A stretch of DNA of 64,000 nucleotides from Pirellulales bacterium (GTDB lineage: Bacteria; Planctomycetota; Planctomycetia; Pirellulales; JADZDJ01): NCBI GenBank assembly GCA_035499655.1, contig DATJYL010000112.1, forward strand, positions 2,250 through 66,249. Reading direction: 5' to 3'. The translations under genes were made by a program, and so were the position numbers. Positions 2,699 to 62,722 of the stretch are shown here, one piece after another. The notes under the pieces were generated by a model. The model did no database searches. It was not told the DNA's origin and saw only the letters and a list, made by a program, of their open reading frames with translations. Position 1 is the first letter of the stretch; the number at the start of each line of letters is the position of its first letter.

Positions 2699-4585
2699 TC
2701 ACCCTTCCAGATGCACCAGCAGAACTGCCACGTCTGCCGGGGTGATGCCACTAATCCGGCTCGCTTGCGCTAAACTCATGGGACGCACTCGGGCGAATTT
2801 CTCTCGGGCTTCGGTGCGCAGTTGAACCAGGCACGAGTAATCGAAGCTTGCGGGAATTCGCTTTTCTTGCAACCGCCGTAAACGCGATACTTCCAAATCC
2901 TGGCGCTCCACATAGCCGGCGTACTTTAGATCGTATTCGATGCTCCGCGCTACTTCATCTGGCACTTGGGCAAGCTCCGGGAGTTGGGCGACCAAATCCG
3001 CCCAACCGATTTCCGGACGTCGCAGCAGCTTGGCCAGCTGCGTTTCGCCCGACTTGGTGATTTGCAGTAATGCCAGCACGCGCGCCATTGCCGTTTGCTT
3101 ACGCTCGAACTGTTGCCAACGCACATCATTCACCAGACCAATCTGCCGTCCCAGCGGTGTCAGGCGGCGGTCGGCGTTGTCTTGCCGCAGCGATAGACGA
3201 AATTCCGCGCGACTGGTGAACATGCGGTAAGGCTCGTCCACGCCGCGCGTCACCAGGTCGTCGATCAGCACACCGATATAACCTTGTTCGCGGGCCAGCA
3301 CCAGCGGTTCTGCCGCGCGCAGCTTCAACACCGCGTTGATGCCGGCCATTAAACCTTGGGCCGCCGCTTCCTCGTAACCGGTGGTGCCGTTAATCTGCCC
3401 GGCGAAGTACAGCCCGCCGACAAGTTTGGTTTCCAGGCTGGGCCACAGTTGCACCGGCGGAGCATAATCGTACTCCACGGCATAGCCATAGCGCATGATT
3501 TCGGCCCGTTCCAATCCGGGAATGAGCGGCAGCATGGCGTCTTGCACGTCGCGGGGCAGGCTGGTGGAAACGCCGTTCACGTACACTTCCAACGTGGTGC
3601 GCCCCTCGGGTTCCAAGAACAATTGATGCCGCTCTTTGTCGGCGAAGCGCACGACTTTATCTTCGATCGATGGGCAATACCGCGGACCGCGCGATTGTAT
3701 TTGGCCCGAGTACATGGGCGCCCGGTGCAAGTTGGCGCGAATCAGATCATGCACCGCCTGGTTGGTGTACGTAATCCAGCACGGCATTTGCGGCTGCGAA
3801 ATTTTGTCAGTGAGAAAACTGAACGGTTGCGGATCGTCGTCGCCGGGTTGCAGCTCGCAACAGCTGTAATCGATGGTGCGGCCGTTCAGGCGGCAAGGCG
3901 TGCCGGTTTTGAAACGGGCCAGCTCGAAGCCCAACCGCACCAGCGCGCCGCTGATGCCAGACGTCGTTCCCTCGCCGGCGCGGCCGCCGGGAGTTTTCGT
4001 TTCGCCGGTGTGCATGATGGCTTGCAGAAACGTGCCTGTGGTAAGAACCACGGCGCGAGCGCGGTATTTGGCCCCGCCGCGCACACCTACGCCGCTGATG
4101 CGGCGAGGCCGGAATTCGGAATTCGGAAGCCGGCAGATTTCAGACTGCTTGTTTTCCATTCCACATTCCACATTCCGCATTTCCCACTCTTCCGTTAGCA
4201 GATCTTCCACCACTTCCTGCCGCAGCACCAGATTCGGCTGCGACTCGACAATCCGCTTCATCTCCTGCTGATAAGCTTTTTTGTCGGCTTGCGCCCGGGG
4301 GCTGTGCATGGCCGGGCCTTTGCGGCGGTTGAGCAAGCGGAACTGAATTCCCGTGGCGTCGATGGCCTGTCCCATTGCCCCGCCCAGCGCGTCGATTTCG
4401 CGCACAATTTGCCCCTTGGCTACGCCGCCGATGGCCGGGTTGCAGCTCATTTGCGCCACGGTGTCGCAGTTGGTGGTCAGCAGCGCTGTGCGGGCCCCCA
4501 TGCGCGCCGCCGCCAACGCCGCTTCGCACCCGGCATGGCCGGCGCCGATGACAAGCACGTCGAAATCGTATGGCGAGGAGGACAT
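2699..4585 (-). CDS. mnmG: tRNA uridine-5-carboxymethylaminomethyl(34) synthesis enzyme MnmG (GidA), carrying an in-frame repeat-derived insertion
   Basis: [62 protein letters not shown]; start taken at ATG 4585 (alternative GTG 4612). Confidence 0.97.
4110..4188. repeat. Inverted heptamer-array pair inside the mnmG coding sequence
   Basis: ggaattc-ggaattc-ggaa (4111-4128) ... ttccaca-ttccaca-ttccgca-tttccc; encodes part of [26 protein letters not shown]. Confidence 0.8.
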
Positions 4586-5139: not shown

Positions 5140-5148
5140 GGGAAACCT

Positions 5149-5190
5149 CAGTGGACAGTGATCGGTGGTCAGTGGTCAGTGCTGAGTGGC
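5149..5190. repeat. Six-unit degenerate heptamer array (CAGTGGT type), single arm
   Basis: cagtgga cagtgat cggtggt cagtggt cagtgct gagtggc; 9 bp upstream of the ATG at 5139 (minus strand). Confidence 0.85.
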
Positions 5191-6147: not shown

Positions 6148-6217
6148 AATGACGAATGCCTAATGACGAATGACGAATGACGAATGACGAATGCGGAATG
6201 GGGAGTGTGGAATGTGA
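6148..6217. repeat. Ten-unit heptamer array grading from AATGACG to AATGCGG/AATGTGG types
   Basis: aatgacg aatgcct aatgacg aatgacg aatgacg aatgacg aatgcgg aatgggg agtgtgg aatgtga. Confidence 0.92.
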
Positions 6218-10570: not shown

Positions 10571-11704
10571 ATGACGCCAAATCCAGTGACCTCGCCTGCC
10601 GATCTTAGTGCTTTCGTCGCCGCTGCCCGAGACCGGCTGAATGCCCACGTGTACGAAACCGTGCAGTGGCATTTTCATCCGTCAACGGGCTGCCCATTTT
10701 GGCTGGCGAAGGCGAGCGAGTTGAAATTCAATCCGCTGACGGAAGTGCGCTCCTTCGACGATTTGAAAAAGTTTCCGGAGTTCCAAGACGAATGGCTCCG
10801 CGGCGGTCCCGTGCGGCGGTGGGTGCCCAAAGCGCTGGCCGATAAGCCGATTTATGTGTTCGAAACCGGCGGGACAACCGGCATTCCTAAAAGCCGCATT
10901 GCCAGTGAAGATTTTCGCATCGATTACGAACTGTTCAGCCAAACGCTCCCCGAAAAATACTTTCCTCACGGCTCCAATTGGCTGATGTTGGGGCCATCCG
11001 GGCCGCGGCGGCTGCGGCTGGCCGTAGAGCATTTGGCGCAGCACCGCGGCGGCATTTGCTTTTGCATCGATTTGGATCCACGCTGGGTCATCAAGCTCAT
11101 CAAGCGCGGGTGGATGGAACACTTGGAAGCGTACAAGCAGCACTGCATCGAACAGGCGATTACCATTTTGCGGGCCGGTCACGACATCAAGTGCATGTTC
11201 ACCACGCCAAAATTGTTGGAGGCATTAGCGCTGGAATTGGAAAAGAGGGGCTCCAGTATTCCCCAGGAGGGCATCACCGGCATTTTCAGCGGCGGCACGG
11301 AGTTTACCCCGCAATGGACGCGGTTTGCCGTCGAAGAATTTCTGGGCGGGCCGCCGGAGCAAAGCGGCGTGTACATGACGCCCACCTACGGGAACACGCT
11401 GATGGGCCTGGCCGCCAGCAAGCCGGTCACCGCCGCCGACGGTTACAAAATTAGTTACTACGCGCCGCAACCCCGGGCCGTAGTGGAAGTGGTGGATTTC
11501 AAAAATTACAACAACGTGGTGGGCTACGGCCAAACCGGCCGGGCAAAATTGACCACGCTGACGAAAGAGTTTTTTGTGCCCGGCTTCATGGAGCGCGACG
11601 AAGGAGAACGTGAACCGCCGTACGAAAAATATCCCTGGGACGGCGTCAGCGGCGTGCGCCCGTTTCATGAACTGGCCGAAGCCACCACGGTGGGCGTGTA
11701 TTAG
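10571..11704 (+). CDS. LuxE/PaaK-like acyl-adenylate-forming enzyme (acyl-protein synthetase-like)
   Basis: AMP-binding loop FETGGTTGIPK, SGGTEF, TYGNTLMG; short 377-aa ANL-like fold lacking a typical C-terminal domain. Confidence 0.75.
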   Translation: MTPNPVTSPADLSAFVAAARDRLNAHVYETVQWHFHPSTGCPFWLAKASELKFNPLTEVRSFDDLKKFPEFQDEWLRGGPVRRWVPKALADKPIYVFETGGTTGIPKSRIASEDFRIDYELFSQTLPEKYFPHGSNWLMLGPSGPRRLRLAVEHLAQHRGGICFCIDLDPRWVIKLIKRGWMEHLEAYKQHCIEQAITILRAGHDIKCMFTTPKLLEALALELEKRGSSIPQEGITGIFSGGTEFTPQWTRFAVEEFLGGPPEQSGVYMTPTYGNTLMGLAASKPVTAADGYKISYYAPQPRAVVEVVDFKNYNNVVGYGQTGRAKLTTLTKEFFVPGFMERDEGEREPPYEKYPWDGVSGVRPFHELAEATTVGVY

Positions 11705-11735
11705 AGTGCGGAGTGGGTAGTGCGGAGTGCGGAGT
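11704..11735. repeat. Left heptamer arm (GAGTGCG type) of the four-helix-bundle cassette
   Basis: gagtgcg gagtggg tagtgcg gagtgcg gagt; begins at the last base of the upstream TAG. Confidence 0.9.
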
Positions 11736-11771
11736 TTTCAATCGGGATTAATTTCGAACAGGGCAAGGAAA

Positions 11772-12146
11772 ATGAGTTCCAACGATAAAGCATCGAAAGA
11801 GCAGTTGCGACCGCGGACTTATCAATTTGCTTTGCGAGTTATCCGCTTAGTCGATAGTTTACCGCGGTCACGCTCGGCAGATCACATCGGTGGGCAATTA
11901 CTACGTTGTGGCACTTCGGTGGGAGCAAATTACAGAGCTGCTTGCCGGGCCAGAAGTCCAGCTGAATTTCGAGCCAAATTAGGGATCGTTGAGGAAGAAT
12001 CCGACGAGGCGGCATTTTGGCTACATATTTTGGGAGATTCAAAGCTGATGAAGAAAGAACAGTTGATCGAGTTGTTGAAAGAATCCAATGAAATTACTGC
12101 AATGGTGGTTGCATCGATAAAAAGTTCTCGTCGATCCGATTCTTAA
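11772..12146 (+). CDS. Four-helix-bundle protein (23S rRNA IVS protein family PF05635/TIGR02436-like; Avd-like fold)
   Basis: RTYQFALRVIRLVDSLP...QLLRCGTSVGANYRAACRARSPAEFRAKLGIVEEESDEAAFWL...ESNEITAMV; AAGGA RBS before ATG 11772. Confidence 0.92.
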   Translation: MSSNDKASKEQLRPRTYQFALRVIRLVDSLPRSRSADHIGGQLLRCGTSVGANYRAACRARSPAEFRAKLGIVEEESDEAAFWLHILGDSKLMKKEQLIELLKESNEITAMVVASIKSSRRSDS

Positions 12147-12219
12147 ACTCCGCACTCCGCACTCTGCACTCCGCACTCCCCACTCCCCACTCCGCACTCC
12201 CCACTCCCCACTCCGCACT
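12147..12219. repeat. Right heptamer arm (ACTCCGC/ACTCCCC), 10.5 units, inverted relative to 11704-11735
   Basis: actccgc actccgc actctgc actccgc actcccc actcccc actccgc actcccc actcccc actccgc act; starts right after TAA 12146 and ends 1 bp before ATG 12221. Confidence 0.95.
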
Positions 12220-12220
12220 T

Positions 12221-13666
12221 ATGCTCAACCTTCCCGTTCTCCGTTGGGGCAAGCCGTACGATTCGCTGGAGAAGGACCAGGTGGTTCATTTCATCAGCGG
12301 CGAGCCGATTGCGGCGGTTAGCCAAGCGAACGGAGCCTTGCTGCAGCGCGATATGCGCAATGCTAAGAACGCCCGCAAGGCGCTGCTCGATTTCAAGCCC
12401 GAGGACTTGATCGAGCGGATTAAACAGGCGGCGGATTTGTATTTGAGCGCCACGCTGCCAATGGGCGATGGCACGCAATCGCCCGAGCAGTTTGCCCGGC
12501 AGCAGTCGGCCAGCACGGGTTTGCCCGAACACATGGCCCAGGCCAACATGGCCAAAAATCACTTCGTGTTGACGCACATGGAGCAAATGCTCGATGCGCT
12601 CACCCGCGGGCTACCGTTGGCAATACTGTCGCGCGGCTACGGTGTAGAAAGCCGTGGCGTAGTGGTGAGTTATCAGTGCCAAGCGCCGGCGCTGGGGGTG
12701 GTGTTGCCGTCCAATTCGCCGGGCGTGCATACGCTGTGGCTGCCGGTGATTCCCATGCAAGTGGGCTTGGTGCTCAAGCCTGGGCCGCAAGAACCGTGGA
12801 CGCCCTACCGCATGACGGCGGCGTTTGTGCAGGCGGGCATTCCGGCGGAAGCGATTAGCATTTATCCCGGCGGGGCCGATGCCGGCGCGGCCGTGCTGGC
12901 CAGTTGCCAGCGGAGCATGATCTTCGGCGGTACAGCCACGGTGGAGCGGTACAAGGGCAATCCGAAAGTCAGCGTGCATGGGCCGGGGTTCAGCAAAATT
13001 CTGCTGGGCGACGATGTGGTTGACGAGTGGGAGAAATATCTCGACGTGATGGTCGAGAGCGTGTTCGTCAACAGCGGACGGGGGTGCATCAACTGCTCCA
13101 GCATTTGGGCCTCGCGTCACACACAGGAAATTGCCCAAGCGATTGCCAAGCGAATTGGCCCGGTGGAACCCAAGTCGCCGGAAGACCCGACGGCGGCGCT
13201 GGCGGCGTTCACGGTGCCCGGACAAGCGGCAGGCGTGTGGAAAAGCATTGAGGCAGACTTGCGCGAAGCCGGCGTGGAACATATCACCGCGATGTATGGT
13301 CCGCGGCTGGTGGAACTGGAGCGGTGCGCGTATCTGCGGCCGACGGTGCTGCACTGCGAATCGCCCACGCTGGCGGCGTCCAAAAAAGAATTCATGTTCC
13401 CGTTTGTGAGTGTGGTGAATTGCCCCCAGGAAAAAATGATCGAGTCGATCGGTTACACGCTCGTCGGCACGGCCATCACCAACAATCCGCAGTGGCAACG
13501 CGAACTGACCGATGCCACGAATATCGATCGGTTGAACATCGGGCCAATTCCCACCACCAAGCTCGATTGGCTCCAGCCGCACGAAGGGAGCATCGTGGAG
13601 TTTTTGTTCCGCGCCAGGGCCTATCAACTCCCACCTGACCGGGTGGCGACCCTGGCGAATAAATGA
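12221..13666 (+). CDS. Aldehyde dehydrogenase-superfamily protein / LuxC-like acyl-CoA (acyl-protein) reductase
   Basis: VVLPSNSP, LVLKPG, MIFGG, HGPGFSK, catalytic Cys in NSGRGCINCSS, KEFMFPFVSVV. Confidence 0.85.
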   Translation: MLNLPVLRWGKPYDSLEKDQVVHFISGEPIAAVSQANGALLQRDMRNAKNARKALLDFKPEDLIERIKQAADLYLSATLPMGDGTQSPEQFARQQSASTGLPEHMAQANMAKNHFVLTHMEQMLDALTRGLPLAILSRGYGVESRGVVVSYQCQAPALGVVLPSNSPGVHTLWLPVIPMQVGLVLKPGPQEPWTPYRMTAAFVQAGIPAEAISIYPGGADAGAAVLASCQRSMIFGGTATVERYKGNPKVSVHGPGFSKILLGDDVVDEWEKYLDVMVESVFVNSGRGCINCSSIWASRHTQEIAQAIAKRIGPVEPKSPEDPTAALAAFTVPGQAAGVWKSIEADLREAGVEHITAMYGPRLVELERCAYLRPTVLHCESPTLAASKKEFMFPFVSVVNCPQEKMIESIGYTLVGTAITNNPQWQRELTDATNIDRLNIGPIPTTKLDWLQPHEGSIVEFLFRARAYQLPPDRVATLANK

Positions 13667-16004: not shown

Positions 16005-16044
16005 AATGACGAATGACGAATCCCGGCGCGCCGGGATTCGTCAT
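16005..16044. repeat. Perfect 32-bp palindrome with AATGACG heptamer tails
   Basis: atgacgaatcccggcg|cgccgggattcgtcat (16013-16044) preceded by an extra aatgacg unit. Confidence 0.92.
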
Positions 16045-19178: not shown

Positions 19179-20111
19179 TTATGCGGACCGCGCCATCTCT
19201 ACCACCGCCTGCGCCACCAACGGAGAAGGCCCCAAATGCGACGCGATAATCCACTCCTTTTCCATTCCCTCTTCTTCTGCCTTCTGCTTTCTGCCTTCTT
19301 CTTTCCAATCACCGACCACCGACCACTGACTCACTGCCTCTCCAATCTGTCTCAGCACTTCCCCCGTGAATAGCAAATGTGGCTGCACCACAATCCGCCG
19401 ATATTCGCTCAAGGCCGCCCGCTTCAGCGCTTCCTTCAGTGTTGGCGTGGCCACGGCCGCAAAGCAAACTTCCACGCGGTCCACGGCGGTCTCTTGCGCC
19501 CGCAACGCCGCAAACCGCTGCATAGCGGCAATGGCGTCGGCATGCGAACTGCCCCGGCCGACCAATAAATGCAGAGTTTCCGCCGCCGGAACGTGCGGCC
19601 GGTCGTGTAATGCCTCGGCAAATCGCTGGGCCGATAGTTGGACGATCCGCTCGTGGCATTCCAGCGCGCCGAGAAATTCGACCTGCAACTCTTCCCGCGA
19701 ACCATCTTCTGCCTTCTGCCCTCTGCCTTCTGCCTTCTGCTTCGCCACCTTTCCTTTCTGGCCACAGACCACGGCTCGACTGAGTTCGCCGAAGTCCGAC
19801 CACTGACCACAAAGCCCCTCTTGCACCGCCGCCGGAATATCGTGCTTGGCATGCCCGGCCGCGAACAACAACAGCGGGACTACCGTCAACCGTTCCACCC
19901 CCTGCCGCAACAATCGCTCCAAGGCCTCCGGAATGCTCGGCTCGGCCAATTCCAAAAAGCAGGATTCCACCAAAAACTCGCCGGCCAACTCCGCCACCTG
20001 CCGCGCCACGGCCCAGAACTCCGCCAAACCGTTGGAATTTTGCGTCCCGTGCCCCACTAAAAGGAGGCCTTTTTTCGCCGTTTGTATGCTCGCCGGGAAT
20101 CCCATCGACAC
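19179..20111 (-). CDS. cbiX: Sirohydrochlorin chelatase, two-domain CbiX/SirB family, with two in-frame repeat insertions
   Basis: LLLVGHG, SCFLELAEPSI, VPLLLFAAGHAKHDIP, LLVGRGSS, VQPHLLFTG, ASHLGP. Confidence 0.85.
   Translation of the reverse strand: MSMGFPASIQTAKKGLLLVGHGTQNSNGLAEFWAVARQVAELAGEFLVESCFLELAEPSIPEALERLLRQGVERLTVVPLLLFAAGHAKHDIPAAVQEGLCGQWSDFGELSRAVVCGQKGKVAKQKAEGRGQKAEDGSREELQVEFLGALECHERIVQLSAQRFAEALHDRPHVPAAETLHLLVGRGSSHADAIAAMQRFAALRAQETAVDRVEVCFAAVATPTLKEALKRAALSEYRRIVVQPHLLFTGEVLRQIGEAVSQWSVVGDWKEEGRKQKAEEEGMEKEWIIASHLGPSPLVAQAVVEMARSA
19275..19330. repeat. Eight in-register heptamers inside cbiX (CAGTGGT-type plus GCAGAAG-type on the coding strand)
   Basis: ttctgcc ttctgct ttctgcc ttcttct ttccaat caccgac caccgac cactgac; encodes SQWSVVGDWKEEGRKQKAE. 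Confidence 0.85.
19707..19810. repeat. Second heptamer-rich insertion inside cbiX
   Basis: ttctgcc ttctgcc ctctgcc ttctgcc ttctgct ... ccacagaccac ... gaccactgaccac; encodes CGQWSDFGELSRAVVCGQKGKVAKQKAEGRGQKAE. Confidence 0.85.
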
Positions 20112-20194: not shown

Positions 20195-20221
20195 GTCATT
20201 CGTCATTAGACATTCGTCATT
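20195..20221. repeat. Single heptamer arm (TCATTCG type) upstream of the sigma54 activator gene
   Basis: gtcattcgtcattagacattcgtcatt, 26/27 identical to the reverse complement of 6148-6174. Confidence 0.85.
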
Positions 20222-37612: not shown

Positions 37613-38719
37613 ATGAAAAACCTAGTTTACGTTTTGCTGTTCACCGCAATGACCGCCATTTCTTGGGGAATTTACGGGCCATTATTGAGCATTGGCGGAA
37701 AACAAATGGGCGGCAGCCATTGGTTGCCGTTTGTATTTGTTGGCGTGGCATACTTCCTGATCGCGGTTTTAGCAACAACCGCTTTGCTGGTATGGCGAGG
37801 CGAACCTGGTAATTGGAATTCCCGCGGCATCATTTGGAGTTTTTTTGCAGGCGTGGTTACAGCCGTGGGCGCGCTCAGCTTGATTCTGGCGCTCACCAAC
37901 AAAGGCAATCCGATTTATGTGATGCCGCTCGTGTTTGGCGGAGCGCCGGTCGTTAACACGTTGCTGGCGATGTGGATTTCGAAAACCTATCGCGAGACGG
38001 GACCATTCTTTTACGCCGGATTAATTTTGGTAATTGCGGGCGCCGTGGCAGTCTTAGTCTTCAAACCTCACGAGATGGCGCCGGCCGCGCCTCTTCCAAC
38101 GGCTACTGCTGGGCAAGCAGTTCCCGCCTCAGAACCCAATGCTGCCACAGCGCAAGCAGCTGTCGCAAACACGGGTTCTGGATTTACGACTCTGCTGATT
38201 ATTTCCGCATTCATTGCGTTAACGGCAATTTGTTGGGGGTGTTATGGCCCGTTATTGCACAAGGGACAAACCTTTATGCACGGCAGCCGCATGCGACCCT
38301 TCATTTGCGTAGGAATGGCGTATGTTGTCGTGGGGATCGTTGCTCCTTTAGTTTTTTGGACCGCTCTGGGAGACCACGGCCAAATTTCTGCTCGCGGAGT
38401 GATCTGGAGTCTGGCAGGAGGAACCGCAGGCGCCGTCGGGTCGTTAGGCGTAATTCTAGCATTTACCTTCGGTGGCAAACCCATTTACGTTATGCCGCTG
38501 GTCTTTGGCGGCGCGCCAGTCGTGAATACATTCTTTAGCATCATCACGGCCCAGCAATTAAGCAGCATTTCGCCGTTTTTCTACGCCGGGCTGATTGTCG
38601 TGGTCGCCGGCGCGGTTAGCGTGCTGGTGTTTGCTCCGCACGGCGCCCCGCACCCGGCACCCGCCACCGAGACAAAACCGCCCGCCGCTCCCGCCACTCC
38701 CGAGCCGGCGAAACCGTAA
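37613..38719 (+). CDS. Integral membrane protein with an internally duplicated DMT/EamA-like unit
   Basis: Two repeats of WGxYGPLL...GxPIYVMPLVFGGAPVVNT...PFFYAGLI separated by an Ala/Pro/Thr linker. Confidence 0.8.
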   Translation: MKNLVYVLLFTAMTAISWGIYGPLLSIGGKQMGGSHWLPFVFVGVAYFLIAVLATTALLVWRGEPGNWNSRGIIWSFFAGVVTAVGALSLILALTNKGNPIYVMPLVFGGAPVVNTLLAMWISKTYRETGPFFYAGLILVIAGAVAVLVFKPHEMAPAAPLPTATAGQAVPASEPNAATAQAAVANTGSGFTTLLIISAFIALTAICWGCYGPLLHKGQTFMHGSRMRPFICVGMAYVVVGIVAPLVFWTALGDHGQISARGVIWSLAGGTAGAVGSLGVILAFTFGGKPIYVMPLVFGGAPVVNTFFSIITAQQLSSISPFFYAGLIVVVAGAVSVLVFAPHGAPHPAPATETKPPAAPATPEPAKP

Positions 38720-38823
38720 TGACCAAGATGAATTTCCAATGACCACACGAAGTGGCGGAGCTAAATCCCAATGACCAATGATTTGCTCCAACATTGGTCA
38801 TTGGTGCTTGGGCATTGGTTATT
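38718..38823. repeat. Inverted AATGACC-type heptamer arms between convergent genes
   Basis: aatgacc...aaatccc aatgacc aatga [tttgctccaa] cattgg tcattgg tgcttgg gcattgg ttatt. Confidence 0.9.
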
Positions 38824-39564: not shown

Positions 39565-39572
39565 GATGAAAG

Positions 39573-39656
39573 CAATTAGCGGCTGGCAATTAGCGATTAG
39601 CAACGGACGGTATCATTCATTTTCTGCGATTGGCTAGTTGCTAATTGCTAATTGCT
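39573..39656. repeat. Inverted CAATTAG-type heptamer arms between queC and queE
   Basis: caattag cggctgg caattag cgattag caa ... cgattgg ctagttg ctaattg ctaattg ct; supplies the queC stop (TAG 39648-39650). Confidence 0.85.
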
Positions 39657-41387: not shown

Positions 41388-41807
41388 CTACACGCAATAC
41401 GGCCGGAGTTTGCCGGCCACATTTTCCGGAATGGGAATTGATTGCAGCACGTTACCGGTCGCGGGCAACCGGCAACAAACGGCGGTCATGCTGCCGGTGG
41501 CCACAGGTCGCTCGTCATGCGACACTTCGAATTTGTACGTCACGCTTTTGTTTCCCAGTCGGGAAATGCTGAGCGTGATGGTGAGCACATCTTCAAAGCG
41601 CACCGCGCTTTGAAAATCGCACTGGGCATTGACGCGCGGCCAACTGAACGGGCCCGTATCATCTTTCGCCAGCACACTCAGCCCCAAGTGCCGCAAGAAT
41701 TCGTGCTCCACTGATTCCATCAGCGGAAAGAACGAGGCGAAGTGCATGATGCCCGCCGCATCGGTATCGCGAAATTCCACTCGGCGCGTGGCGGTGAAAG
41801 AAGGCAT
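41388..41807 (-). CDS. Acyl-CoA thioesterase (4-HBT / hot-dog family)
   Basis: RRVEFRDTDAAGIMHFASFF, CDFQSAVRFED, KSVTYKF. Confidence 0.88.
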   Translation of the reverse strand: MPSFTATRRVEFRDTDAAGIMHFASFFPLMESVEHEFLRHLGLSVLAKDDTGPFSWPRVNAQCDFQSAVRFEDVLTITLSISRLGNKSVTYKFEVSHDERPVATGSMTAVCCRLPATGNVLQSIPIPENVAGKLRPYCV

Positions 41808-41811
41808 AAAT

Positions 41812-41888
41812 GCAGAAGGCAGAAGGCAGAAGGCAGAAAACACCAAATCGTGCGTGCGATTCTGCTTTCTGCAGTCTGCCTTCTGCCT
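41812..41888. repeat. Inverted GCAGAAG-type heptamer arms between rpsR and the thioesterase gene
   Basis: gcagaag x3 gcagaaa ... ttctgct ttctgca gtctgcc ttctgcc. Confidence 0.9.
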
Positions 41889-41894
41889 TAAAAA

Positions 41895-58248: not shown

Positions 58249-59190
58249 ATGAAAATTATTCTGGCCAGTCCGCGCGGGTTTTGTGCGGGCGTGAACATGG
58301 CGATCGACACGTTGGAAAAATCGCTGGGCATTTTTGGCGCGCCGGTGTACGTCTATCATGAAATTGTGCACAACAAGCACGTCGTGGAGCGGTTTCGCGC
58401 GGAAGGGGCCGTCTTCGTGGACGATTTGCACGAAGTGCCCGAGGGGGCGAATTTGCTGTTTTCGGCCCACGGTGTCTCGCCGGAAGTGCGGCGTGTGGCT
58501 CAGGAGCGGCGGCTGAATACCATCGACGCCACGTGCCCGCTAGTGACCAAAGTGCATTTGGAAGCGGTGCGGTATGCGAAGCAAGGTTACAAAATCATCT
58601 TGGTGGGCCATGCCGGGCATGACGAAGTGATCGGCACTATGGGGGAAGCGCCCGATGCGTTTTATTTGGTTGGGACGGCCGAGGAGGTCGACGGATTGGA
58701 ATTTCCATCCAAAACCAAGCTGGCGTATCTCACGCAAACAACGCTCTCGGTCGACGACGCCAACCGCATCATTAAGCGGCTGAAGGAAAAGTTCCCGCAC
58801 ATCATTGGGCCGCCCAAGGAAGATATTTGCTACGCCACACAGAACCGGCAGGAGGCAGTGCGGCAGTTATCGTCCGAGGCCAACGTAGTGCTGGTAATTG
58901 GCAGCCAGAACAGCTCCAACAGCTTGCGGCTGGCGGAGCTGGCGTCCGAAACCGGCACGCCCGCTTATTTGATCGACGGCCCGCCGGACATCGAATTATC
59001 CTGGTTCCAGCCGGACTCGACGGTGCTCATTACCGCCGGCGCCAGCGCGCCGGAAACGGTGGTGCAGCAGTGCATCGAATTACTGAAACGGCACTTCGGC
59101 GCCACGGTGGAAGAACGCACGCTGCGCGAGGAGCAAGTGTTCTTTGCGCTACCGAAAGAATTGCGCGTACTGACGGGCGTAGAAAGATAA
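58249..59190 (+). CDS. ispH: 4-hydroxy-3-methylbut-2-enyl diphosphate reductase IspH
   Basis: PRGFCAGV, EIVHN, FSAHGV, DATCPLV, QTTLS, ICYATQNRQ, NSSNS, TAGASAPE. Confidence 0.98.
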   Translation: MKIILASPRGFCAGVNMAIDTLEKSLGIFGAPVYVYHEIVHNKHVVERFRAEGAVFVDDLHEVPEGANLLFSAHGVSPEVRRVAQERRLNTIDATCPLVTKVHLEAVRYAKQGYKIILVGHAGHDEVIGTMGEAPDAFYLVGTAEEVDGLEFPSKTKLAYLTQTTLSVDDANRIIKRLKEKFPHIIGPPKEDICYATQNRQEAVRQLSSEANVVLVIGSQNSSNSLRLAELASETGTPAYLIDGPPDIELSWFQPDSTVLITAGASAPETVVQQCIELLKRHFGATVEERTLREEQVFFALPKELRVLTGVER

Positions 59191-59242
59191 TGACCAATGA
59201 CCAAGTCGCAATGACCAGAAAATCATTGGTCATTGGTGCTTG
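59189..59242. repeat. Inverted AATGACC-type heptamer arms after ispH
   Basis: aatgacc aatgacc aagtcgc aatgacc [agaaaa] tcattgg tcattgg tgcttg. Confidence 0.9.
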
Positions 59243-59914: not shown

Positions 59915-60013
59915 AATGACCAATGACCAAATCCCAATGACCAATATGCGGTTCAATCCAGCTAGGGCATTGCCGCTTAATCATTGGTCATTGGTGCTTG
60001 GGCATTGGTCATT
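59915..60013. repeat. Inverted AATGACC-type heptamer arms with a ~35-bp spacer
   Basis: aatgacc aatgacc aaatccc aatgacc aat ... tcattgg tcattgg tgcttgg gcattgg tcatt; the right arm shares 27 identical bp with 38792-38818. Confidence 0.92.
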
Positions 60014-60392
60014 GTGTTGTGCGGATCACCAATCGCACATCACCAATGGGGCTTCCCAGTGGTTCTTCAGGATCGATAATATAAACCGATGCAGATGGCG
60101 GCGGCTGCGCAACCGCAGAGTGCGGATCGACCGACACCATCAGCTCATTGGCGGGCTTTAGCAGCGGGGTAATGTCGGCCGAAAAGAATTGCCCCGGTTC
60201 AAGCCGGCCCAAATTCGTGCCGTTTAGCGAAATTTCGCCCAAAAAAATCCCCCGATCTACTTCCAGCGACACCCGCTCCCAGGTGTCCAAGCCCGTGGGG
60301 CATTTGAATCGCCGGCGATATGCCACTCGCCCCGGCGAGGCGTCAGGCAACTCTTCCCACGGCTGCCGCAGGCGAATCGGGTGGGGAATCAT
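60009..60392 (-). CDS. Small protein resembling the galactose-binding/sugar-binding module of GH2 enzymes
   Basis: IRLRQPW..VAYRRRFKCPTGL..EISLNGTNLG..DITPLLKPANELMV; stop TGA lies inside a repeat arm. Confidence 0.65.
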   Translation of the reverse strand: MIPHPIRLRQPWEELPDASPGRVAYRRRFKCPTGLDTWERVSLEVDRGIFLGEISLNGTNLGRLEPGQFFSADITPLLKPANELMVSVDPHSAVAQPPPSASVYIIDPEEPLGSPIGDVRLVIRTTQ

Positions 60393-60406
60393 GGGGAAGA
60401 CGGGAG

Positions 60407-60531
60407 GATGAAGGCAGAAGGCGGAAGGCGGAAGGGGGAACCCGGATAAGGCAGACGCAGGATTGAGGTGAAACACCTGGACGAAAACAGAACGCTATGC
60501 GTTTTACATTCTGCTTTCTGCCTTCTGCCTT
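60407..60531. repeat. Inverted GCAGAAG/GCGGAAG-type heptamer arms with a ~70-bp spacer
   Basis: gatgaag gcagaag gcggaag gcggaag ... ttctgct ttctgcc ttctgcc. Confidence 0.85.
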
Positions 60532-62643: not shown

Positions 62644-62722
62644 AATGACCAATGTCCAAGCACCAATGACCAATCTGAAAATGCATCGCGCATTGGTCAT
62701 TGTGGCTTTGTCATTGGTCATT
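62644..62722. repeat. Inverted AATGACC-type heptamer arms overlapping the terC stop
   Basis: aatgacc aatgtcc aagcacc aatgacc aat ... gcattgg tcattgt ggctttg tcattgg tcatt. Confidence 0.9.

Follow-up and report, generated by a model that had tools for sequence, protein, structure and literature searches.

A window of 64,000 nucleotides from a Pirellulales bacterium (contig DATJYL010000112.1 of assembly GCA_035499655.1, positions 2,250 to 66,249 of the forward strand) contains, at positions 11704-12219, a small gene that is enclosed by inverted arrays of heptamers and inserted between two operon genes. We conclude that this block is probably a self-contained, "armed" four-helix-bundle cassette, i.e. 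an old insert that would be transcribed by read-through, whose two arms would pair with each other and whose protein would recognise the repeat unit of its own arms. The cassette is evidently an insert and not native operon sequence, and it belongs to a class that, to judge from genome comparisons, lands at many gene junctions and turns over fast between congeners. A first-pass annotation, made from the letters of the window, had proposed a transposase-less mobile cassette. Mobility is indeed shown for the class, but the copy at hand, named GAGTGCG after its repeat unit, descends vertically with repeated loss, so that its own mobility is only inferred.

The cassette comprises 516 bases and occupies the gap between two conserved genes, all features being on the plus strand. 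Upstream lies a gene from the list of open reading frames (ORFs) for an adenylate-forming-like protein of 377 aa (10571-11704), downstream a gene for a member of the aldehyde dehydrogenase family with 481 aa (12221-13666; PF00171, E=4.8e-19). The left (5′) arm, delimited like the right one by Tandem Repeats Finder, consists of 4.6 copies of GAGTGCG (11704-11735) with the G-rich version on the sense strand, and its first base is the final G of the TAG stop codon (11702-11704) of the upstream gene. It is followed by a leader of 36 nt (11736-11771), in which a purine-rich ribosome-binding stretch, AAGGAAA, can be read ahead of the ATG, and by the sole ORF of the cassette, the helical-bundle gene (124 aa, 11772-12146). 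The right (3′) arm, 10.4 copies of ACTCCGC/ACTCCCC (12147-12219), begins directly at the TAA of this gene and stops 1 nt short of the ATG at 12221. In an inverted-repeat comparison the arms are 91-94% complementary over 31-34 nt and, as the right arm is longer than the left one, three pairing registers are possible. The inverted-repeat score of the cassette is 27, whereas only 1 of 400 random sites of the same geometry in the genome reaches 14, the maximum being 15. In a minimum-free-energy fold of the RNA the arms close the entire cassette (dG -189 kcal/mol, z -3.3).

The protein matches both PF05635 (E=4.9e-17, 62.5 bits, cut-off 33.8) and TIGR02436 (E=1.2e-24, 86.6 bits, cut-off 24) above the curated cut-offs, and its residues 12-120 match the sequence of PDB entry 2RLD (E=1.5e-15), which contains five chains. 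The GC content of the ORF is 46% (GC3 42%) vs. 59-61% (GC3 73-76%) in the flanking genes. The family assignment, the inverted arrays on both sides, their boundaries at the upstream stop and just ahead of the next ATG, and the drop in GC content had all been read correctly in the first-pass annotation. Its names for the flanking genes, LuxE-like and LuxC-like, were not borne out by Pfam, which gives a sub-threshold AMP-binding match upstream (PF00501, E=5.9e-4) and the Aldedh family downstream. The cassette is located between protein-coding genes and not in helix 25 or 45 of 23S rRNA, and it has no match to the defence or phage families in the PADLOC-DB and PHROGs profile libraries.

The source genome (G000; 4.54 Mb in 244 contigs, 97% complete) contains eight PF05635 genes, one of them frameshifted, and inverted heptamer arrays with scores of 16.5-32.5 bracket all eight. 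Each cassette is built from a different unit (AGGGCGC, AGCGACT, GAGTGGT, AATGGGG, GAGTGCG, AATGACC, AATGACG, and GCAGAAG), the paralogues being 31-49% identical and the arms differing among all copies. The polarity is fixed, with the purine-rich version lying 5′ in the sense of the gene at 8/8 loci, and the GC content of all eight genes is 5-12 points below that of their flanks. None of the six Y1-transposase genes (PF01797) in the same genome is bracketed by arrays. Period 7 is the most frequent tandem-repeat period in G000 (508 arrays), and the spacing of inverted pairs is bimodal, with 8-106 nt for cargo-less hairpins, of which there are about 44, and 360-470 nt for cassettes. That each repeat family has one cassette is a marginal result, as eight draws from the array families would share no family with P = 0.058.

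The same architecture is found far beyond this genome. We surveyed the 80 closest proteins, which are 51-68% identical and come from about 19 phyla, and counted a gene as armed at a score of at least 14. Inverted heptamer flanks, for which the first-pass annotation had suggested to test PF05635 genes, are found in 54 of these 80 relatives vs. 0 of 142 controls shifted by 1.5 kb. Armed relatives have a median arm length of 33 nt and a median cassette length of 492 nt. The gene ahead of the cassette points in the same direction as the cassette gene in 50 of 53 cases and belongs to one of 45 different families, and the left arm lies at most 5 nt from the upstream stop codon in 32 of 50 cases, a distance that depends on ORFs delimited by stop codons at both ends. 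Next to a convergent gene, the right arm mostly adjoins the stop codon of that gene, too. The 5′ arm has more G than C in 50 of the 54 foreign loci. The class of arm unit changes 11 times on the protein tree, compared with 25.1 times in shuffles (0/300 as low), whereas the host phylum changes 38 times, and well-supported branches force at least four changes in each of four phyla. The clade of the cassette itself has A[A/G/T]TGCGG units and its sister clade ATTTTGG-type units, GC-rich hosts included. The arm-unit class thus follows the protein tree and not the host, i.e. the arms travel with the gene, and the cassette class has been passed between phyla with its arms attached.

The history of the GAGTGCG copy can be followed at its own junction. 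Of the 61 relatives from the order, 57 have the downstream gene, the two flanking genes are adjacent in 28 of the 29 relatives' loci that were read, and their spacing ranges from a 1-nt overlap to 960 nt. In the aldehyde dehydrogenase tree the family clade of G000 has a support of 100/100. The junction is filled in G000 and, at the same position, in G004 from another genus, where the protein is 77% identical and the arms are AGTGCGG/ACTCCGC as in G000. In G002, a member of the same genus and the sister of G000 (99/98), there is only a purine-rich gap of 21 nt, and in G007, the sister of G004 (100/99), as well as in G009 the two genes overlap in a TGATG stop/start. G003, G005, and G006 have unrelated sequence at this place. 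G008 has 41 nt with a solo right arm, composed of CCGCACT, CCGAATT, CCGAACT, and CCGCACT followed by a T, which ends in CTCCGCACTT directly before the ATG, as in the filled junction. Hence, empty alleles, which the first-pass annotation had recommended to look for, exist in sister species, and its view of the block as a discrete insert between otherwise abutting genes is supported by the overlap and the 21-nt gap. The simplest reading is that the cassette entered the junction once, before the genera separated, and was lost at least four times thereafter, the solo arm being left by one of the losses; descent at the GAGTGCG locus is, by this comparison, vertical with repeated loss.

Between G000 and G004 the cassette protein has a dN of 0.147 with dS saturated, in line with the flanking gene (dN 0.099, dS 1.41), and the cassette gene is thus under purifying selection. 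Moreover, the arm unit AGTGCGG is identical in both genomes although dS of the flanking gene is 1.41. The low GC content might be taken as a sign of recent arrival, but the insert is older than the split of the two genera, its dS is saturated, and it is still GC-poor. As the low GC content persisted past the split, it is a standing property and not the mark of a newcomer.

The junction has been used by other elements as well. In G051, which belongs to another family, it carries a different cassette (37% identical, AATTGCA arms), and independent colonisation has therefore occurred at least twice. In the order as a whole, this place is occupied (loci L021, L036, L039, L013, L019, L032, and L292) by HicAB, two PIN-type toxin-antitoxin pairs, two small ORFs of unknown kind, a cargo-less GGGGCGA hairpin (in G039), and an unrelated four-helix-bundle cassette. 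The junction orthologous to 11704-12220 is a hot spot for small selfish inserts. In G004 the gene downstream of the cassette (L015/L273) seemingly lacks an ATG; by eye, a possible start codon is a GTG overlapping the TGA of the cassette gene (GTGA), in which case the right arm would become a translated N-terminal extension (TPHSAPRTPHSC...).

Turnover of the class between close relatives is fast. PF05635 genes are present in eight copies in G000, three in G002, six in G004, and none in G007, and only two cassette sites are shared, C131 by G000 and G002 and the GAGTGCG site by G000 and G004. Four cassette sites of G000 are empty in G002. Conversely, two G004 cassettes face plain empty sites in G000, i.e. 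ordinary spacers without a hairpin (C197:29445-29522; C217:19575-19644), and one G004 cassette faces a cargo-less G000 hairpin with a one-mismatch unit (C95). Unrelated G000 hairpins stand opposite a G002 cassette (C10) and a G001 cassette (C131:21585-21876), the latter junction being empty in G002. At the C48b cassette site G002 has an insert of 896 nt (L133, G002:C127:13488-14383) with an apparent nucleotidyltransferase/HEPN pair, named by sequence reading, while the insert of G003 is a small ORF that resembles a membrane protein. At the C9 site G002 contains a hairpin of 149 nt that combines arms of the same family with an 87-nt remnant of the cassette gene, homologous to its 3′ end. This remnant aligns with a score of 23 vs. 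3.5 ± 1.9 in 2000 shuffles, none of which scored as high, and random genome windows reach at most 13; a genome-wide BLAST search with the hairpin loop was not significant, and significance was obtained only by aligning the two orthologous sites by position. The C9 hairpin of G002 is thus a cassette that has lost its middle, and it reveals one route from cassette to cargo-less hairpin. A second four-helix-bundle cassette of G002 (L123, G002:C183) is located right after the aldehyde dehydrogenase gene, has GGCTAGT-type arms, and runs antisense to its neighbours; past it, the synteny of G002 jumps to the inverted equivalent of window position ~51480, a break of ~38 kb.

These data bear on the strongest competitor of the self-contained cassette, namely a domesticated host module in which the hairpin and an RNA-binding bundle protein process or stabilise operon mRNA, patchiness being due to loss and ordinary horizontal transfer. 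The cassette has been kept at its junction since before the two genera split, under strong purifying selection and with an unchanged arm unit, its arms fit precisely onto the stop and start codons, and the paralogues are single-copy and divergent, like domesticated RAYTs. However, it was lost in most relatives without a visible replacement, congeners have almost no cassettes in common, toxin-antitoxin modules use the same junctions, and pseudogenised copies are common (C131; several relatives with internal stops). We therefore consider domestication unlikely, though it deserves more credit than the explanations that follow.

Heptamer arrays are also found without a gene, and they are related to the cassettes. 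Outside the cassettes G000 has 383 period-7 arrays, 39% of which have exactly the unit of one of the genome's own cassettes and 67% a unit within one mismatch, as compared with 13-14% within one mismatch for random units or units of foreign cassettes. Together with the internally deleted cassette of G002, this two-thirds share of own-cassette units upholds the earlier proposal that the cargo-less hairpins are relatives of the cassettes. In contrast, a role of the GAGTGCG cassette as master of the other hairpins in the window is not supported, since no more than one free array in the genome has its unit. The density of arrays, taken from 400 kb sampled from each of six relatives, making seven genomes in all, is 2.5-7.5 per Mb in three complete genomes without a PF05635 gene; where there are 4, 6, and 8 copies, it is 25, 92, and 89 per Mb, respectively. 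Three-unit AGTGCGG arrays were detected in 14 of the 61 relatives, where a reversed-pattern control gave zero matches save one in G036. Among genomes that encode a protein with at least 48% identity to that of the cassette, 6 of 8 have such arrays vs. 8 of 53 among the others (Fisher p 0.0012), and outside the family in 2 of 4 vs. 3 of 46 (p 0.045). That genomes without the gene are nearly free of arrays suggests a partnership of PF05635 gene and arrays similar to that of REP and RAYT.

The same arrays could be explained the other way round, with the heptamer hairpins being host structures (terminators, insulators, or REP-like sequences) into which only the gene moves, so that the arms would be target and not cargo. 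There is a precedent in IS1397, which inserts in the loops of REP palindromes. Cassette junctions often hold a different or related cargo-less hairpin elsewhere, as C10, C95, and C131 do opposite the G002, G004, and G001 cassettes and as the GGGGCGA hairpin does in G039, and free AGTGCGG arrays exist in genomes without the cognate gene. Homing of this kind would nevertheless leave unexplained why the arm unit follows the protein phylogeny across phyla, why two filled sites are paired with plain, hairpin-free empty ones, why one cargo-less hairpin is a demonstrable deletion product of a cassette, and why complete genomes without the gene are nearly array-free. In our view it is quite improbable, more so than domestication.

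Replication slippage at the junctions might also create arrays in place, the association with the gene being a by-product, e.g. of a single-stranded loop. The arrays are indeed very unequal in length (4.6 vs. 10.4 units), differ between orthologues, and occupy the whole intergenic space, but slippage explains neither complementary arrays with fixed polarity (all eight own loci, 50/54 foreign ones) nor the conservation of the unit across phyla within one protein clade, and we give it very little weight.

PF05635 is distantly related to Avd of diversity-generating retroelements, a small basic four-helix bundle that assembles as a pentamer and, in concert with a reverse transcriptase, binds nucleic acid. 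A retro-mobility model would build on the earlier idea of an RNA intermediate: the element would leave the mRNA as a stem-loop and spread as RNA, a reverse transcriptase being aided by the Avd-like protein. This kinship and the RNA fold that closes the cassette speak for such a route, but it is the least credible of all, given that the reverse transcriptase to be looked for is missing (no PF00078 match in the 97%-complete G000, with positive controls matched), that the arms show no bias of G·U over A·C, and that there are no poly-A, target duplication, or processed copies. Insertion into DNA uses neither an element-encoded transposase nor a reverse transcriptase.

We therefore favour the armed, self-contained cassette and suggest the following scheme. 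The cassette would have no promoter of its own and be transcribed by read-through from the host operon, as cassette and upstream gene are co-oriented in nearly all armed relatives and there is no room for a promoter. In the transcript the arms may pair to a stem of ~32 bp, which would bring the upstream stop beside the downstream start. By analogy with the ORF-bearing intervening sequences of 23S rRNA, the paired stem might be a substrate of RNase III, the gene for which is present in G000. The protein, pentameric in solved homologues, would recognise its own heptamer unit, and gene and cargo-less arrays might relate to each other as RAYT gene and REP sequences do. For the RNA part of this mechanism we see roughly even odds. 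A search for RNA sequencing runs that contain the window found none; the runs identified by way of a Nostocales relative contain, as assembled contigs, only arms or cargo-less hairpins and thus yield no read ends.

Several observations weigh against this reading. Transcription, stem formation, and cleavage by RNase III are all inferred from sequence. Mismatches in the 54 arm pairs are G·U in 47 and A·C in 50 cases; as there is no G·U excess, selection for an RNA stem of the sense strand is not demonstrated, and pairing could matter in DNA. A consistent target-site duplication was found neither at the G000 and G004 cassettes nor at the two cassettes facing plain empty sites, a possible TTA..TTA duplication in G000 not being common to G004. 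Moreover, we found neither a recombinase nor a near-identical second copy, the paralogues being as divergent as described above, and a six-frame HMM search of 25 cargo-less G000 hairpins yielded no gene remnants. On the side of the arrays, the correlation of copy number with array density (Spearman 0.78, p 0.04) comes from seven genomes and is uncorrected for phylogeny, and the near lack of free GAGTGCG arrays in their own genome is an exception to the partnership of protein and arrays. A second exception is G007, where about six AGTGCGG loci and a density of 65 arrays per Mb go along with no detectable PF05635 gene in a 79%-complete assembly.

The nearest object in print is the S23p-encoding intervening sequence (IVS) of 23S rRNA, whose architecture the cassette shares, as already recognised in the first-pass annotation. 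ORF-bearing IVSs in Leptospira and Coxiella burnetii have 428-444 nt, and their S23p is PF05635 (Warrier et al. 2016, PMC4990558). Terminal inverted repeats form a stem of ~28 bp around the ORF, the 5′ part contains tandem GACAGAT heptamers with a copy number that varies between strains, cleavage by RNase III was shown experimentally for the Coxiella element, and a former mobile element has been proposed (PMC4990558). Protein family, size class, enclosing terminal stem, and heptamers are thus common to both. However, the IVS resides in helix 45 or 25 of rRNA, whereas the cassette lies between two cistrons of a protein-coding operon, its arms are built wholly of heptamer arrays, and its gene is under purifying selection while the Coxiella ORF is decaying (PMC4990558).

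Heptamer arrays as such are known from Xanthomonas and Nostoc (Rehm et al. 2015, PMC4692102) and, in the form of four-heptanucleotide elements, from Geobacter metallireducens (Aklujkar et al. 2009, PMC2700814). These consist of about four units, are G-rich on the coding strand, and lie 0-50 nt from a stop codon or overlap it; many form convergent pairs, and some copies are located within genes. Both papers report cargo-less arrays only, name no protein family, and favour G-quadruplexes or regulator sites as explanations (PMC4692102, PMC2700814). G000 shares with them the 7-nt units, the number of about four units, the G-rich strand after the stop, and the convergent pairs, but here a gene lies between the arrays, and their units agree with those of the cassettes in the same genome. 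Full-text literature searches found no paper that ties PF05635 to heptamer hairpins outside rRNA.

The best functional analogy is REP/REPIN-RAYT, although membership fails on the enzyme. RAYT paralogues each have their own repeat family, gene-less hairpins lie near stop codons, and genomes without the gene lack the repeats. The RAYT gene itself, in the work of Nunvar (2010) and of Bertels and Rainey (2011), is reportedly a single-copy gene flanked by inverted copies of its own repeat. In contrast, the cassette gene encodes a helical bundle of 124 aa without HUH or Y1 motif, and its repeats are tandem 7-mers and not a single palindrome. To our knowledge, no catalytic activity of the PF05635 helical-bundle protein is known. 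From diversity-generating retroelements the cassette differs in having no adjacent or genomic reverse transcriptase and in placing its gene in a hairpin within an unrelated operon. With MITEs and other transposons with terminal inverted repeats (TIRs) the cassettes share these repeats, the small size, the intergenic site, and an internally deleted, gene-less derivative, but they lack a transposase, target-site duplications, and families of near-identical copies.

Taken together, one may tentatively go a step further, with somewhat more doubt than confidence: hairpin elements could form a class found throughout the bacteria, with armed PF05635 genes as its autonomous members, the cargo-less arrays as gene-less derivatives, the pentameric protein as a partner that recognises arrays of its own unit by sequence and maintains or spreads them, the 23S rRNA intervening sequences as copies that landed in rRNA, and the excess of 7-nt repeats in bacterial genomes as the footprint of the class. 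If this is true, a symbiosis of the REPIN/RAYT kind would rest on a protein without a known nuclease fold. The locus and its relatives tie together three puzzles that were long separate, i.e. the purpose of the ORF in rRNA intervening sequences, the role of the very common "four helix bundle protein" genes scattered over operons, restriction-modification loci, and cas loci, and the over-representation of 7-nt repeats beside stop codons in many bacteria. If binding of the protein to its own repeat were confirmed, we would be dealing with a new kind of minimal genetic element, one without a recognisable transposase, and would have a handle on its mechanism. For annotation, "hypothetical" operon insertions of ~500 bp and many intergenic or in-frame heptamer arrays become recognisable as one class.

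Some further observations concern individual cassettes and arrays. In G000 a frameshift cuts the cassette gene at C131:22757-23046 into two HMM pieces, the frame being open in the G002 orthologue, and cassette copies of several relatives have internal stop codons. At C191:36682-37345, inverted CAGTGGT/CACTGAC arrays enclose 572 nt without a PF05635 match, which may represent other or degraded cargo. A metagenome contig (run X1) joins a GAGTGCG arm to an ACTCCGC arm by a 24-nt loop (CGCTCAACTTGCCTCTCCGGCATC), the joint touching 11735/12147; only 31 nt flank it, and since ACTCCGC arrays are abundant in this run, the contig possibly comes from another organism. Over the right arm, the contig depths add up to 1162 in X1 and 443 in X2, which means that arrays of ACTCCGC units are very common in both communities.

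The isoleucyl-tRNA synthetase gene of G000 contains two in-frame features of this kind, an AGGGCGC array and a hairpin of AGGGCGC/GCGCCCT (C33:1309-1338 and 1711-1772), which add about 16 residues (GDRAQGAGDSSDPASRALRPAPF). The insertion point carries an insertion of variable length in all members of the family and none in the other families of the order. In the window itself, further heptamer arrays are located at 4110-4181, 5148-5189, 6148-6216, 16005-16021, 19274-19330, 19706-19740, 20195-20221, 38641-38823, 39571-39656, 41799-41889, 59189-59237, 59915-60014, 60395-60531, and 62644-62722. Most of them are cargo-less inverted pairs with a short loop and with units such as AATGACC, AATGACG, GCAGAAG/AAGGCAG, and AGCAATT, and the units of these cargo-less arrays are the arm units of other four-helix-bundle cassettes elsewhere in the genome.

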